Assembly (NCBI GenBank): GCA_963836075.1
Contig: CAWIIB010000009.1
Coordinates: 480,001 to 544,000 of the forward strand
DNA from: an uncultured Acidobacteriota bacterium
Lineage (GTDB): Bacteria > Acidobacteriota > JAQAZP01
Direction: 5' to 3'
Length of the DNA: 64,000 nucleotides
The translations under genes and the position numbers were made by a program. Below the pieces are notes generated by a model. It ran no database searches, was not told the DNA's origin, and saw only the letters and a list, made by a program, of their open reading frames with translations. The first letter of the stretch is position 1. Each line of letters starts with the position of its first letter. Of this stretch, positions 39,563-45,344 are shown piece after piece.

Positions 39563-39773
39563 CGTGATCAAACCGCATCCGGAGTGCGGAGGAGCCGAAG
39601 GCAGGGGTTGCAGGTGGGCATATGAGCAGCAGGATGGGGCCGCCGGCTGCATACTCTCGATAGCTCGCTTGCCCTTTTTGCATAAAGAAATTATATTCAC
39701 TGCATGTATGGTTGGCTCAAGCCGATCCCAGTATCATATATCTCTGTATATTCAACCAAATGAGGCGGTTACC

Positions 39774-41294
39774 ATGCTCAGAGCTGGGACGAGTCTGGCT
39801 TTCATCCTCTTGTGCTCTTCCATTGTGGTGACTGGCGCAGTTATCCATGTCCCGAGCGGCCAGCCCACCATCCAGGCGGGGATCGACGCTGCCGTGGACG
39901 GGGACACCGTGCTGGTGGCCGATGGAACCTTCACCGGTGACGGGAACCGTAACATCGGCTTTCACGGCAAGGCGATCACCGTCAGGTCGGAGAACGGGGC
40001 GGAGTACTGCATTATCGATTGTGAAGGCTGGGGATTTGGATTCACTTTCCAAAACGGTGAGGATCTGGATTCGGTGCTGGACGGATTCACGATCCGCAAC
40101 GGAGAATATATCGCTGGTGGTGGGATCTACTGCGACGGCTCCTCCCCAACGATCGCCAACTGCACCTTCAGTGGAAACGTAGCTGATTTTTTGGGTGGTG
40201 GGCTGTTTTGCGTCTACTCCTCGCCAACGATCGCCAACTGCACCTTCAGTGGAAACGTAGCTGATAGTGACGGTGCCGGTGGTGGGATCTACTGCGCTCA
40301 ATCCTCCCCGACGATCACCAACTGCACCTTCAGCGCTAACGGGGCACAAGGGGCTTGGGGTGGGGGTAACGGTGGTGGGATCTTCTGCGACGCCTCCTCG
40401 CCAACGATCACCAACTGCACCTTCAGCGCTAACTGGGCACATGGGGGTTATGATGGGGGTACGGGTGGTGGGATCGCCTGCTGGGGCTCATCAACGACGA
40501 TCACCAACTGCACCTTCAGCGAGAACGTAGCTGATAATGGTTATGGTAGTGGGATCTTCTGCACGGGGGCGGGATCCTCGCAAACGATCACCAACTGCAT
40601 CGTCTGGAACAACAGCCCGGACGGCATCCATGACGCATCGGGCTCCTCGATCGTCTCCTACTCCGACGTTCAGGGCGGCTGGCCGGGCGAGGGCAACATC
40701 GACGCCGATCCGCTGTTCATTGCCGGACCCGAGGGCAACTACTACCTCAGCCAAGTAGCCGCTGGGCAGGCCGAGGACAGCCCGTGTCTGGATGCCGGGA
40801 GCGAACCGTCAGCGGACATCTGCTACGACAGTGGCGAGGGGACTGTCTGCCTCGACCAGCGCCCGACCCGCACCGACTTCGTCGACGACGCCGGGCAGGT
40901 GGACATGGGATACCACTACCCCGGCCGGATGGTGGAGTCGGTTCTGACCAGTTCCCTGACGTTCGGCACGGTGCCCTTCACGACGGATCTGTCGGTGACG
41001 GTCTCGAACCGGCACCCAAGCCAGTCCCGGACTCTCGTCGGCCGTATCGACGTCGAGCTCGCCGGCGGCCAGTCTTTCCCGAACTGGCGAACCGGATTCT
41101 TGAGCGTTCCGCCCGGAGACAGCTTTACCACGTCCTGGCCCCGGAACATCCCGGCCCTCGGGTCGGTGATTGGGAGAAACGAGTTCACGCTGGTGGCCGA
41201 GGACGTGACATCCGCACCCTTCAACCAACCGCCCTATCCACCGGCAGGGGACACCGCCACGGCCTCCTGCACGGTGACGGGGATCGCTCCGTGA
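39774..41294 (+). CDS. Secreted right-handed parallel beta-helix repeat protein with shared C-terminal domain
   Basis: Signal peptide, TIQAGIDAA..DTVLVADG, repeated GGGIxC..SPTIxNCTFSxN, GNIDADPLF, VDMGYHY. Confidence 0.88.
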   Translation: MLRAGTSLAFILLCSSIVVTGAVIHVPSGQPTIQAGIDAAVDGDTVLVADGTFTGDGNRNIGFHGKAITVRSENGAEYCIIDCEGWGFGFTFQNGEDLDSVLDGFTIRNGEYIAGGGIYCDGSSPTIANCTFSGNVADFLGGGLFCVYSSPTIANCTFSGNVADSDGAGGGIYCAQSSPTITNCTFSANGAQGAWGGGNGGGIFCDASSPTITNCTFSANWAHGGYDGGTGGGIACWGSSTTITNCTFSENVADNGYGSGIFCTGAGSSQTITNCIVWNNSPDGIHDASGSSIVSYSDVQGGWPGEGNIDADPLFIAGPEGNYYLSQVAAGQAEDSPCLDAGSEPSADICYDSGEGTVCLDQRPTRTDFVDDAGQVDMGYHYPGRMVESVLTSSLTFGTVPFTTDLSVTVSNRHPSQSRTLVGRIDVELAGGQSFPNWRTGFLSVPPGDSFTTSWPRNIPALGSVIGRNEFTLVAEDVTSAPFNQPPYPPAGDTATASCTVTGIAP

Positions 41295-41375
41295 ACGACC
41301 GGGTGAAACAGCGACATTGATCGGGCAGGCCTCGTAGCGCATCCAGAAAACGATCCCAGCAAAATAGCCGATCTA

Positions 41376-41429
41376 TTGTTATCAACAACTTAAATTGACT
41401 ACATCATTAGCATGTTGTGACCGCCGGCC
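41376..41429. repeat. 54-bp conserved downstream motif, copy 1 (contains IHF box)
   Basis: 47/54 identical to 43189-43242; TATCAACAACTTA fits WATCAANNNNTTR. Confidence 0.85.
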
Positions 41430-41634
41430 GAAAAATAAAAGGCTTCCTCGCCACTTTCTTCTTGCCGTTTCGTAAAAATTGCTTATATTTAGCACAAAAG
41501 CACTGCCTATTATTCGTTTTATCCTTCTCTAATCTGATGGCGCCCGAAAGGATTTGTCATCCACGGGAGACAAGGAGCAACGAGATAAGGATTCCTATCT
41601 ATTGAAACGTGGAGGCCATAAAAGGAGTAGTCCC

Positions 41635-43107
41635 ATGAACATCCGCATGTTCTGTTTTATCTGCATCGCATTGCTGACTCTGTGCTTTATTCCAACGACG
41701 ATAACCGAAGCACAGTTATTTGAGCCAGCCGTGAACTACAGTGCCGGTTATGAGCCTTACTCCGTCGACATCGGCGACCTTGATGGCGACGGCACCCCGG
41801 ACCTGGCCGTAGCGAACCGGGTCGACGACAATGTCTCGGTGCTGCTGGGTAACGGGGACGGCACTTTCCAGGATGCGGAGAATTACGGCGCAGCTGAGTC
41901 TCCCGAATCAGTTGCCATCGCAAACCTTGATGGCAACGGCGCCCCGGACCTGGCTGTGGCGAATTACCTGAGTGACAATGTCTCGGTACTCCTGGGCATT
42001 GGGGACGGCATTTTTGGGGCTGCGGTGAATTACGGCGTCGATGACGGGCCTATATCGGTCGCCATCGCAGACCTTGATGGCGATGGCAACTCGGACCTGA
42101 CTGTGGTGAATTACCTGGGTTTCAATGTCTCGGTACTCCTGGGCATTGGGGACGGCACCTTTGGGGCCGCGGTGAATTACGGCGTCAATATCGGGCCTTA
42201 CTCGGTGGCCATCGATGACCTGGATGGCAACCAAGTTCTGGACCTGGCCGTGGCGAATAGTAGCAGTGTTTCCATACTCTTGGGTCTTGGGGACGGCACC
42301 TTTGAAGCCGCGGTGCATTACAACGCCGGCGATGAGCTTAGATCGGTCGCTATCGATGACCTGAATGGCGACGGTGCCCTGGACCTGGCCGTGGCCAATT
42401 CCTTGAGCGACGATGTCTCGGTGCTGCTAGGCAACGGCGACGGCACCTTCCAGACAAGGGTCAATTACGGGGCCGGTGACGGTTCTTACTCGGTCGCCAT
42501 CGGCGACCTGGATGGCGACTTCAACCCGGACCTAGCCGTGTCCAATATATGGAGCAACAATATCTCCGTTCTGTTAGGCAACGGGGACGGCACTTTCCAG
42601 AATGCGGAGAATTACGGGGTCGATCATTGGCCATGGTCGGTCGCCATCGAAGACCTTGATGGCGACGGTGCCCTGGACCTGGCCGTGGCAAATCGAGCTG
42701 GCAACAATATCTCGGTGCTTATCAACCGGAGCGCTGAGAATATCATCGCCGCCGAGCTGACCTGCGTCCCGGCATCGGGCACGATACCCTTTATGGTCAG
42801 CATGACGGTGGGATTGACGAACCAATACAACGGGCAAACCCGCCGTATTGCCGGCCACATTAACCTCCAGCTGGCCGGGGGCGACTACTACTCCAACTGG
42901 CGAGCGGGCTACACCAACGTGGGTCCCGGTCAGACGTACTCGTCATTGTGGGTGCAGACAATCCCGGACCTCGGATCGGTGATCGGCACGAACACTTTCA
43001 CGCTGGTGGCCGAGGACGTGACGCCCTCACCATACAACCAGCCCCCATACCCACCGGCTGGGGATATCGACATGGTCAGCTGCACGGTGACGGGGATCGC
43101 TCCCTGA
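41635..43107 (+). CDS. Secreted FG-GAP/VCBS repeat protein with shared C-terminal domain
   Basis: Signal peptide, seven SVAIxDLDGDGxxDLAVAN..VSVLLGNGDGTF repeats. Confidence 0.9.
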   Translation: MNIRMFCFICIALLTLCFIPTTITEAQLFEPAVNYSAGYEPYSVDIGDLDGDGTPDLAVANRVDDNVSVLLGNGDGTFQDAENYGAAESPESVAIANLDGNGAPDLAVANYLSDNVSVLLGIGDGIFGAAVNYGVDDGPISVAIADLDGDGNSDLTVVNYLGFNVSVLLGIGDGTFGAAVNYGVNIGPYSVAIDDLDGNQVLDLAVANSSSVSILLGLGDGTFEAAVHYNAGDELRSVAIDDLNGDGALDLAVANSLSDDVSVLLGNGDGTFQTRVNYGAGDGSYSVAIGDLDGDFNPDLAVSNIWSNNISVLLGNGDGTFQNAENYGVDHWPWSVAIEDLDGDGALDLAVANRAGNNISVLINRSAENIIAAELTCVPASGTIPFMVSMTVGLTNQYNGQTRRIAGHINLQLAGGDYYSNWRAGYTNVGPGQTYSSLWVQTIPDLGSVIGTNTFTLVAEDVTPSPYNQPPYPPAGDIDMVSCTVTGIAP

Positions 43108-43970: not shown

Positions 43971-45344
43971 TCAATCAGTCTGATACTCCCGGGCGTCGAT
44001 CCCCAGCTTCTTCATCTTGCGCCACAGTGTGGTGCGGCTGATGCCCAGGTCGCGGGCCGTCTCCTCCACCCGGCCCTGGTTGGCGCGGAGGGCGGTGCGG
44101 ATGGCATCCCCCTCGGCGGCCTTCAATTTCCTTTTCGGGTCTCCGGCGGCAGCGGCCTTGCCCGGTGCGGCGGCCTGCCGGCGCAGACCGGACTGCAAGT
44201 CTTCGGGCAGGTGGTGCACGTCGATCACCAGGTCGTGGCAGAGGACAAAGCCGTACTCGATGAGGTTCTCCAGTTCGCGCACGTTGCCCGGGAAGTCGTG
44301 GCGCATCAGGATCTCCATCACCGCCGGGGTGACGCCGGTGATCGTCTTGCCCCGCTTGGCCGAAAAGCGCCGGATGAAGTGCTCCACGAGGAAGGGGATG
44401 TCCTGGCGCCGCTCGCGGAGCGGGGGCACGGTGAGGCGGATCACCGCCAGCCGGAAATAGAGGTCGTCGCGGAACTTGCCCTGGCTCACCAGCTCGGCCA
44501 GCTTGCGGTTGGTGGCCGCCACCACCCGCACGTTGGTCTTCAGCGGCCCTTCGCCCCCCAGCGGCTCGTACTCGCGCTCCTGGAGGACGCGGAGCAGCTT
44601 GACCTGGGTCTCCGGCGGCAGCTCGCTGATCTCGTCGAAGAAGATCGTCCCCCCCTCGGCCAGGGTCAGCCGCCCCGGCTTGTCCCGCTTGGCATCGGTG
44701 AACGCGCCCTTGATGTAGCCGAAGAGCTCCGACTCGAAGAGGGTCGCCGGCAGGGCGCCGCAGTTGACCACCACGTAGGGTTGTTTGGCTCGCTGGCTCA
44801 GGTTGTGCACCGCCCGGGCGAGAAGTTCTTTGCCCGAGCCGCTGGGGCCTTCGATGAGCACGGTGGACTCGCTCTCGGCGATGTCGGGGAGCAGGGCGAA
44901 GATCTTGCGGAAGGCCTCGCTCTTGCCGACGATGTCCTCGAAGGTGTACTGGCTCTTGATCTCGCGGCGCAGCTGCTCGATGGCCGAGAGGTCGCGGAAG
45001 GTCTCCACCGCCCCGATCAGCGTGCCGTCGGCATCGCGCAGCACCGCGGTGCTGACACTGATCGGCGTCGACTTGCCTTTGGCGTCGAGGATGCGGGCCG
45101 GCAGGTCGATCTGCTCCATGCCGGTGTCGCGGGTCTGGCGCATGGCGCAGCCCGACTCGCAGATGTTGGCGTGGAAGACGTCGCAGCAGCGCTGGCCGAT
45201 GGCCTCCTCGGCGGAAACCCCGGTGATCCGCTCGGCGGCGCGGTTGAACGAGGTGATCTTCCAATCGCGGTCAACGGTGAACACACCGTCGGCGATGGAA
45301 CTGAGGATCAGTTCGAGAAACTGCCTGTTGTATTCCGGTTTCAT
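43971..45344 (-). CDS. PAS-containing sigma-54 enhancer-binding protein (OrpR-like)
   Basis: PAS with C-X8-C-X3-C (CCDVFHANICESGC), GPSGSGKE, GAFTDA, Fis-type HTH. Confidence 0.9.
   Translation of the reverse strand: MKPEYNRQFLELILSSIADGVFTVDRDWKITSFNRAAERITGVSAEEAIGQRCCDVFHANICESGCAMRQTRDTGMEQIDLPARILDAKGKSTPISVSTAVLRDADGTLIGAVETFRDLSAIEQLRREIKSQYTFEDIVGKSEAFRKIFALLPDIAESESTVLIEGPSGSGKELLARAVHNLSQRAKQPYVVVNCGALPATLFESELFGYIKGAFTDAKRDKPGRLTLAEGGTIFFDEISELPPETQVKLLRVLQEREYEPLGGEGPLKTNVRVVAATNRKLAELVSQGKFRDDLYFRLAVIRLTVPPLRERRQDIPFLVEHFIRRFSAKRGKTITGVTPAVMEILMRHDFPGNVRELENLIEYGFVLCHDLVIDVHHLPEDLQSGLRRQAAAPGKAAAAGDPKRKLKAAEGDAIRTALRANQGRVEETARDLGISRTTLWRKMKKLGIDAREYQTD

Follow-up and report, generated by a model that had tools for sequence, protein, structure and literature searches.

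In a 64,000-nucleotide stretch of DNA from an uncultured Acidobacteriota bacterium (referred to as the window here), two neighboring genes encode otherwise unrelated proteins that end in the same module of ∼121 residues. The window corresponds to positions 480001 to 544000 of contig C9 in the source genome (G000; 6.23 Mb in 10 contigs, with an estimated completeness of 94.7% and contamination of 4.6%). We propose, with a probability of roughly 60%, that this module is a lineage-specific C-terminal tag domain, which would give ∼225 unrelated proteins a common extracytoplasmic destination. We class the domain as a C-terminal module of a putative sorting or docking type that forms a new sequence family and comes without recognizable machinery, and a sorting or docking tag is the most likely explanation for it.

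The first gene (P0001, 506 amino acids; positions 39774..41294 of the window, plus strand) was delimited by its open reading frame (ORF) and translation and has its most plausible start codon in the ATG at 39774, which is preceded by a GAGG at a distance of 6 to 10 nt. Between a signal-peptide-like N terminus and the C-terminal domain, it carries a right-handed beta-helix passenger (Pfam Beta_helix, PF13229; E value of 1.5e-29 over residues 117 to 292). The second gene (P0002, 490 amino acids; 41635..43107, plus strand), delimited in the same way, starts at the ATG at 41635, with a GGAG 7 nt upstream, and its signal-peptide-like N terminus and C-terminal domain enclose FG-GAP repeats (FG-GAP_3, PF13517; 2.7e-49 over seven stretches). 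By eye, both N termini open with a short run of charged residues that gives way to a hydrophobic stretch. When the two proteins were compared by BLASTP, the single significant segment was formed by the C-terminal 126 residues (64 of 126 identical, or 51%; 90 positives; E value of 6e-41), and all remaining segments had E values of at least 0.8. This agrees with the first-pass annotation of the DNA, which had described two unrelated proteins with a common C-terminal domain. Its manual count of about 62 identities in 120 residues was accurate, because the domain core of ∼120 residues aligns without gaps in the multiple alignment; the one gap in the BLASTP alignment, of four residues, lies at the N-terminal edge of the segment. 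Inspection of the sequence also bore out its remark that the domain has no hydrophobic or basic tail, and its impression that no known family was involved was borne out as well, since both isolated window domains match no Pfam or NCBIfam family at an E value of ≤1. Chance resemblance between the two copies is excluded because as many as 225 ORFs of the genome contain the domain.

As placed by BLASTP and multiple alignment, copy 1 comprises 120 amino acids (40932..41291, plus strand) and reached an E value of 1.6e-54 in the genome-wide profile search (G000:C9:520932-521291). It is atypical in having TSSLTFGT where the family has TCxPxSGT and has thereby lost the first of two conserved cysteines, which places it among the 8 of 187 copies that keep Cys114 alone. 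Copy 2 (121 amino acids; 42742..43104, plus strand) has both conserved cysteines and ends in CTVTGIAP; used as a query, it retrieved at least 150 copies from the genome, and it is the first sequence of the alignment used for structure prediction (A1, see below) and hence the sequence modeled. The most conserved segment of the family, a proline-rich loop located from the alignment and the conservation profile, lies at 41202..41252 in copy 1 (DVTSAPFNQPPYPPAGD) and at 43015..43065 in copy 2 (DVTPSPYNQPPYPPAGD), both on the plus strand.

For a census of the genome, we built a profile from the window copies, iterated it once, and ran it against every six-frame stop-to-stop ORF of 60 amino acids or more. 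This yielded 225 ORFs with the domain in the 6.2-Mb genome, in line with the expectation of many paralogues, and 193 of the copies are near full length (100 or more of the 121 profile positions). The domain had also been expected to be always terminal. Its envelope ends exactly at the stop codon in 198 of the 225 ORFs, 187 of the 193 near-full-length copies end no more than three residues from the stop, and clearly internal copies occur in two ORFs only, with 420 and 295 residues after the domain. The register is similarly fixed, with 158 of the 187 terminal copies aligning to the last profile position without extension, 162 ending in proline, and 110 ending in Ala-Pro. Among the crude gene calls made within this analysis, 191 of 4,788 (∼4%) carry the domain. 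The copies are dispersed (94 on contig C1 and 117 on C9, denser in the 1.4- to 2.3-Mb region of C1), and the tagged genes are mostly solitary, as 122 of 149 runs are single genes. A crude hydropathy rule finds a signal-peptide-like start in 134 of the 187 copies. In the best 150 database representatives, the domain is terminal in 144; 135 of these representatives start with methionine, 105 of them with a signal-peptide-like N terminus. Two copies are found in 8 of the 150, in tandem in 7 cases, and the internal copies of these two-copy proteins keep the loop and, in all but two, the cysteine pair.

These positions bear on two alternative explanations. The domain could be a cleavable export signal similar to the C-terminal domains of the type IX secretion system (T9SS), which an outer membrane translocon would read, as a whole or through its loop, and which a peptidase would then remove, possibly with covalent attachment of the protein to a surface glycolipid. 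We consider this somewhat unlikely. The strictly terminal position and the fixed register (158 of 187 copies reaching the last position and 162 of 187 ending in proline) speak in its favor, whereas tandem copies with an intact internal copy would be unusual for a secretion signal. Alternatively, the domain could be a structural immunoglobulin (Ig)-like end cap that has spread by domain shuffling in the lineage and has no sorting or binding role, which we regard as very unlikely. Ig-like spacers are normally internal and variable in number, in contrast to a domain found terminally in 198 of 225 ORFs.

To describe the distribution of the domain across the phylum, we used a sample of 41 Acidobacteriota genomes, including the window's genome and genome G025 (flagged as unpublished). 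Three of them, the window's genome included, belong to the same genus, and the next level of kinship in the sample is the phylum. The domain was found in 3 of the 41 genomes, all from the window's genus (G000 and its sister genomes G001 and G002), with at least 109 scored matches each, the counts for the sister genomes being lower bounds; the other 38 sampled genomes showed no domain at an E value of ≤1e-3. At the same threshold, 501 matches were obtained among 1.84 billion representative proteins. Both results support the earlier description of the domain as lineage specific. A word-indexed search of 5.8 billion clusters gave 847 matches, which were called either “hypothetical protein” or by names derived from the passenger, and the domain is named by no source. 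It is not modeled in Pfam or NCBIfam (release of June 2026), and the portions of articles returned by a full-text literature search on type IX secretion or C-terminal sorting in Acidobacteria/Acidobacteriota held nothing on it.

Two occurrences were found outside the genus. A 4,227-bp contig (L069, G042:C16) in a metagenome-assembled genome (MAG) of a Candidatus Sulfomarinibacteraceae is 98 to 99% identical to the window at 39.4 to 43.1 kb and holds all three domain matches of that MAG; given this identity and the lack of further matches in the MAG, the contig is probably misbinned and derived from the window's species. The other is a low-GC MAG (G041; ∼1 Mb, with 33 to 37% GC over two 20-kb stretches) with two copies of the domain, both on FG-GAP_2 proteins of one family (L116:9842-11440 and L117:10784-12367). 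Each of these proteins is 42% identical over its full length, tag included, to a protein of G000 and has the loop and the cysteine pair of the domain intact; the ending is VMGVQ. This suggests either that an entire gene passed between lineages that are far apart or that the domain arose long ago on the FG-GAP_2 family. That the domain occurs on a single protein family in this distant genome is compatible with an end cap; the loop, however, is almost unchanged across very distant genomes, which argues against one.

We next describe the anatomy of the domain. In an alignment of 30 copies (A1; mean column identity of 71%), the invariant positions include G13, P16, F17, N27, R34, W53, R54, G56, P75, G82, N84, D92, T94, P97, N99, P101, P102, Y103, P104, G107, and P121. 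Any two of the 187 copies are on average 48% identical (5th to 95th percentile, 32 to 60%). T9SS domains are much less conserved among paralogues, and this difference weighs against a cleavable signal of that type. With A1 as input, AlphaFold2 predicted an eight-strand Ig-like beta-sandwich with a mean predicted local distance difference test score (pLDDT) of 91.5 and a predicted template modeling score of 0.82, supporting the beta-sandwich suggested by the first-pass annotation. In this model, positions 93 to 108 form a 16-residue segment without regular structure (pLDDT of 70 to 77). The same segment, the loop DVTPAPYNQPPYPPxGD, is the best-conserved part of the domain, with 3.54 bits per position versus 1.9 to 2.65 in the strands. 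A structural end cap should conserve its core strands over a surface loop, which is the opposite of this pattern.

The two conserved cysteines are located in the first (Cys8) and last (Cys114) strands and tend to occur together, as 127 of the 187 copies have both, 27 have neither, and 33 have one (odds ratio of 17; the Fisher P value of 1e-11 overstates this cooccurrence because paralogues are not independent). Their pattern across the copies suggests that they probably form a disulfide that joins the first and last strands and staples the sandwich. The domain boundary is sharp, at T(V/I)xAxLxCxPxSGT(V/L)PF, and is preceded by small residues (G, P, S, T, and D). Such residues ahead of a sharp boundary would suit a cleavable signal; beyond this preference, no conserved linker or cleavage motif was found before the domain. 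A homodimer prediction scored 0.02 against a mark of 0.42, which speaks neither for nor against self-association.

Structure comparisons gave generic results. Foldseek searches against the PDB returned weak Ig-like matches, with the best E value (2.1e-4) for Spo0M, ahead of complement MG domains, TRAP subunits, and RbmA. VIA-align gave its best Z score of 12.0 for the FnIII domain of RbmA (4be5; root mean square deviation of 2.5 over 104 residues), and Z scores of 10 to 11 for the Ig-like domain of AlkC, transglutaminase, dextranase N-terminal domains, and bacterial alpha-2-macroglobulin MG domains. The CARDB domain 3idu (Z score of 10.1; root mean square deviation of 2.1 over 93 residues) came 13th in a ranking that holds many unrelated Ig-like domains, with Z scores of 9 to 12. 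No T9SS domain was among the 50 VIA-align matches listed, which proves nothing in itself. Neighbors in the ESM Atlas were labeled CARDB-like (scores of 0.91 to 0.92) and serve as leads only. Sequence searches were empty: a profile search of the PDB found no relevant relative (the only match was methionine aminopeptidase, at an E value of 0.99), and the 30 copies, when scanned singly against Pfam at an E value of ≤10, matched no recurrent family. Given these empty sequence searches and generic fold matches, the domain constitutes a previously undescribed sequence family within the common E-set/Ig-like class of folds. The first-pass annotation had named a strong match to CARDB, PKD, FlgD, or T9SS domains as evidence against its proposal; by sequence there is no strong match, while the predicted fold is of the general CARDB/MG/FnIII type. 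The other outcomes it had listed as refuting, a total of just these two copies in the genome or frequent internal or cytoplasmic occurrence, did not arise either.

The fold matches also raise the question of whether the domain is a substrate-targeting module, for example, a carbohydrate-binding or CARDB-type adhesion domain that holds proteins on an external substrate, such as sediment particles or polymers, rather than on the cell's own surface. We consider this quite unlikely. Its favorable points are the resemblance to CARDB, to the Ig-like N-terminal domain of dextranase, and to the biofilm matrix protein RbmA, the CARDB-like neighbors in the protein language model (as leads), the tandem copies, which would fit avidity, and the conserved aromatic residues W53, Y29, W70, and Y103. 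Nevertheless, neither CARDB nor any family of binding modules is matched by sequence, and the conserved element, as far as it can be read from the sequence, is a proline-rich loop and not a flat aromatic face. For an end cap, a generic fold is what would be expected.

To characterize the passengers, we scanned 70 tagged proteins with Pfam, 68 from the sister genomes, one from the misbinned contig, and one from the low-GC MAG. Recognizable passengers were found in 50 of them and none in the remaining 20, and the tag region was covered by no Pfam family in any of the 70. The passengers comprise 12 of FG-GAP type, 6 of beta-helix type, and 8 peptidases (C25 gingipain type with propeptide, S8, M28, and trypsin-like), as well as a Porphyromonas-type peptidylarginine/agmatine deiminase (PAD_porph), CotH, arylsulfotransferases, BNR/sialidase-like proteins, LVIVD and other propellers, multiheme cytochromes, and GEVED and BACON domains. 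Further types come from the wider database, namely, GH5 proteins, GDSL lipases, and proteins of purple acid phosphatase, FGE-sulfatase, papain, and M23 types. The passengers thus belong to diverse, unrelated families, as anticipated by the first-pass annotation. With NCBIfam models, choice-of-anchor J or B domains were seen in 4 of 68 passengers scanned, two of them below the cutoff, and passengers resembled regions of myxosortase- and rhombosortase-dependent M36 peptidases. Many of the passengers are hydrolases, in agreement with a substrate-binding module; however, many others are nonenzymatic (the 12 FG-GAP-type and 6 beta-helix-type proteins of the 70) or cytochromes. The share of ∼4% of the proteome also speaks against such a module, as we know of no binding module attached to that fraction of a proteome.

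The modules carried by homologous passengers are informative. A search with the passenger part of the deiminase (residues 1 to 480) gave 120 best homologues with 46 to 100% identity, of which 5 end in the new domain, 42 carry T9SS-type domains (PF13860, PF18962, or PF13585 by table count; 33 with PF13860, 3 of them together with PF18962, and 9 with PF18962 alone), and 5 carry the dockerin PF00404; several planctomycete-type homologues have, by eye, dockerin-like acidic repeats not flagged by Pfam. Among the homologues of the beta-helix passenger of the first window gene, some carry T9SS domains, a dockerin, or a CARDB domain, and for one of the homologues NCBI gives the name “choice-of-anchor Q domain-containing protein”; orthology is loose in this case because these are repeat proteins. 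Since homologues carry T9SS domains or dockerins at their ends, the new domain sits in the slot of known sorting or docking modules, which is difficult to reconcile with a purely structural end cap. The same cargo fits a cleavable signal, as the passengers mirror classic T9SS cargo (gingipain-type C25 peptidases with propeptide and the Porphyromonas-type deiminase) and deiminase homologues in other phyla carry T9SS domains.

We also compared tags and passengers in 44 orthologue-like pairs between G000 and the sister genomes (passengers at least 50% identical). The tag was 73% identical on average, versus 75% for the last 300 passenger residues, and was more conserved than the passenger in 17 of the 44 pairs. 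These similar identities indicate that tags are inherited vertically together with their genes, with no homogenization by gene conversion. An end cap would likewise be consistent with domain and passenger evolving at about the same rate. Tags on unrelated passengers are nevertheless 41 to 64% identical, which points to a shared constraint.

Among known systems, the closest counterpart is the T9SS C-terminal domain (PF18962/TIGR04183 and PF13860; Bacteroidota and the FCB group). Both are Ig-like sandwiches (by prediction for the new domain) at the extreme C terminus of unrelated passengers that are, or here would be, exported by Sec, both reach up to hundreds of copies per genome, and they share cargo types (C25 gingipain-like peptidases, the deiminase, beta-helix proteins, and FG-GAP proteins). 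The new domain, however, is longer (121 profile positions versus 72 to 75 in the T9SS models, a further point against a cleavable signal of the T9SS kind), and its cysteine pair and invariant proline-rich loop are features of its own. Type I dockerins (PF00404) are also noncatalytic C-terminal modules on many secreted proteins, may occur in tandem, and dock proteins to a common partner, the cohesin; they occupy the same slot in the planctomycete deiminase homologues. A dockerin, though, is a duplicated calcium-binding helical motif of ∼60 residues, unlike a 121-residue all-beta sandwich. CARDB (PF07705), MG, and FnIII domains of the E-set share the predicted fold class (Z scores of ∼10 for MG) but are usually internal and repeated, whereas the new domain is a fixed terminal tag. 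Models of T9SS domains, dockerins, and CARDB all failed to match the window copies at an E value of ≤1 and any of the 30 scanned copies (0 of 30) at an E value of ≤10. The PEP-CTERM, GlyGly-CTERM, and MYXO-CTERM tags resemble the domain in marking many secreted proteins of one lineage at the C terminus, but they are motifs of ∼25 residues with a transmembrane helix and a basic tail, all of which it lacks. The autotransporter barrel of type V secretion has 12 strands and ∼250 to 300 residues, compared with 8 strands and 121 residues, and no Pfam autotransporter match was obtained for the window copies or the 30 scanned copies.

We searched the three genus genomes for components of known pathways. 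The T9SS tag models TIGR04183 (control silent) and PF18962 gave no match in any of the three (PF18962 was above the cutoff in 1 of the 41 sampled genomes), and neither did PorV (NF033710), whose control was detected in Bacteroides thetaiotaomicron, or SprA (TIGR04189), for which no control was detected. Exosortase (PF09721) likewise gave no match in the three, compared with 13 of 41 genomes in the sample, and its control was detected. That PorV and SprA were not found argues against a T9SS-like cleavable signal, with the silent control of SprA in mind. The PorU model (NF033707) matches many C25 domains (22, 15, and 17 matches in G000, G001, and G002, respectively), several of them in proteins that carry the tag; this expansion of C25-type peptidases would be in keeping with a cleavable signal. 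Its best match, a 914-amino-acid protein without the tag (G000:C1:1027241-1029985), scores 202 bits, below the 420-bit cutoff, and is encoded in a four-gene cassette (G000:C1:1026742-1032534, L110) with an S24/S26-like peptidase and two unknown proteins. An orthologue of this PorU-like gene, 65% identical, is found in G001. In G002, however, the cassette is missing through a clean deletion between conserved flanking genes, which counts against a cleavable signal since this genome holds at least 109 copies of the domain. Homologues with 29 to 34% identity occur in 17 sampled genomes without the domain. As a separate observation, PorU-like homologues are present in about half of the sampled Acidobacteriota genomes, and PF18962 tags are nearly absent from the sample.

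Two secretins are conserved in all three genus genomes. The first is a PilMNO-Q type IV pilus secretin. The second (834 amino acids; G000:C1:2169991-2172495, L124:8995-11496, minus strand) has a C-terminal cohesin-like domain (PF00963, 33.5 bits versus a cutoff of 24.1 bits) and is encoded in an operon with an MshE-type ATPase, PilM-like and PilN-like proteins, and two pseudopilins. Its cohesin-like tail (G000:C1:2169994-2170698) is 81 to 83% identical within the genus and matches 24 of the 41 genomes (21 of them outside the genus), mostly in ORFs of 750 to 970 amino acids. G000 encodes another cohesin-like protein at C1:1016984-1017820. True dockerins (PF00404) are also present, with 8, 12, and 8 matches in G000, G001, and G002, respectively. 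As the genus has its own dockerins and cohesin-like domains, the new domain is a separate and far larger set, and the cohesin-bearing secretin is more likely the partner of the dockerins. It is a possibility that lineage-private C-terminal tags all dock on this secretin, which is widespread in the phylum.

The neighborhoods of the tagged genes were clustered as well (581 genes within two genes of a tagged gene). Recurrent neighbors were FG-GAP-like proteins, two-component and σ54 regulators, CHAT/kinase proteins, radical-SAM-like and sulfatase-like proteins, and resistance-nodulation-division pumps. The 18-residue tail of the Thermoanaerobaculia type had no match among the ORF ends of this genome, and a σ54-type promoter motif was not enriched upstream of the tagged genes by k-mer counts.

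Several observations weigh against a tag with a common destination. The fold is generic (Z scores of 12.0 for the FnIII domain of RbmA and 10.1 for CARDB 3idu) and as such says nothing specific about function. In G041, two copies on one FG-GAP_2 family are all there is of the domain, which shows that it can be present in a genome without wholesale tagging of proteins. The exact end at the stop codon could be inherited from the spread of a 3′ cassette and not be selected. The expectation of a signal peptide on every tagged protein held for the 134 of 187 copies mentioned above but failed for the other 53 under the same crude hydropathy rule; many of these ORFs begin inside a recognizable domain, which suggests frameshift-truncated ORFs or the limits of the rule. 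Two candidate partners had to be rejected. The PorU-like C25 peptidase does not qualify as a dedicated sortase, being missing from G002 and present in 17 domain-free genomes, and neither does the cohesin-bearing secretin as a domain-specific receptor, since its tail, found in 24 of 41 genomes, is not codistributed with the domain. Neighborhood clustering showed no transporter family or obvious translocon among the recurrent neighbors, a result that also disfavors a cleavable signal and, as no partner emerged, fits an end cap. The k-mer analysis revealed no special regulon motif upstream of the tagged genes, with only the σ70-like TTGAC-N17-TATATT enriched. The TIGR04183 and SprA negatives are weak because their controls were silent. 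The codistributed transporter, protease, or scaffold predicted by the first-pass annotation was therefore not found in the genus searches or in the neighborhood clustering, and without such a partner the “system” remains inference.

Weighing these points, we still favor a sorting or docking tag. The ∼225 otherwise unrelated proteins would be exported by Sec and then reach a common extracytoplasmic destination through the tag. The sandwich may serve as a scaffold that displays the nearly invariant proline-rich loop, and the loop would be the epitope read by one shared partner. Crossing of the outer membrane may use a general route, e.g., the secretin systems of the genome, and the tag would stay on the mature protein and bind a common ligand in the envelope or matrix, either protein or glycan. 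We have a weak preference for such a retained docking or retention module over a cleaved secretion signal, because the internal copies of the tandem pairs keep the loop and, in all but two, both cysteines, because the very distant genome G041 has retained the domain on one protein family only, and because no T9SS-like parts were found among those searched. More tentatively, the tag could be the address of an unknown Acidobacteriota pathway for outer membrane export or surface attachment, with the loop as its recognition or processing site, which would make it the equivalent of T9SS for this lineage; we think of this as a minority possibility.

A few further features were noted around the tagged genes. 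A promoter-like site precedes the first window gene (TTGCCC, a 17-nt spacer, and TATATT; 39669..39697, plus strand), with a second TATATT at 39747-39752, and another precedes the second gene (TTGCCG, a 17-nt spacer, and TATATT; 41463..41494, plus strand); their role as promoters is predicted from the sequence. A look through public sequencing runs brought up no RNA data set. The arrangement TTGaC-N17-TATATT recurs upstream of other domain-carrying genes. The promoter-like region of the first gene (GCTTGCCC-N17-TATATTCA) is nearly the same in several tagged genes of an array at G000:C1:1915-1929 kb, suggesting that promoter and gene were duplicated together. Directly downstream of the second gene and convergent with it lies a gene for a σ54-dependent activator with a PAS-like N terminus (43971-45344, minus strand; motifs recognized by eye in the translation), and seven σ54 activators are found in the set of neighbors of tagged genes.

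Elsewhere in the genome, a second C-terminal ending, ...V(K/R)VY.YDG......SLEAFPGL.HG.NVAAGRF, occurs on ∼24 genes of G000 (e.g., C1:1472446-1474917, C1:1523867-1526641, and C1:1904609-1907239). These encode secreted repeat proteins without the tag and often adjoin tagged genes, and the ending looks like the closing blade of an FG-GAP-type propeller rather than a tag. A palindromic element, roughly GGACGTACATGAATATATGAA ... TTCATATATTCATGTACGTCC, is near identical at no fewer than 10 intergenic sites of G000 (e.g., upstream of C9:554450, C9:781926, C9:934849, C9:999323, and C1:1442819) and looks like a repetitive extragenic palindromic (REP) element, a miniature inverted-repeat transposable element (MITE), or a shared operator.

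Acidobacteriota are abundant in soils and sediments and have been poorly studied experimentally. With ∼4% of the genes (191 of 4,788) sharing one uncatalogued domain, whatever reads this domain would organize most of the exported proteome, including proteases, phosphatases, lipases, glycosidases, cytochromes, and adhesin-like repeat proteins. As neither the T9SS models searched nor exosortase gave a match, the tag may report a sorting or docking mechanism that is new to diderm bacteria. Even if it turned out to be a binding module only, the domain would be a new family that deserves an entry in domain databases. The putative ability of the cohesin-bearing secretin to dock dockerin-tagged proteins may merit a study of its own. 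A domain of 121 residues with one invariant loop is a compact target for pulldowns, structure determination, and proteomics, and its profile offers an immediate computational readout of the secretome of these uncultured bacteria.

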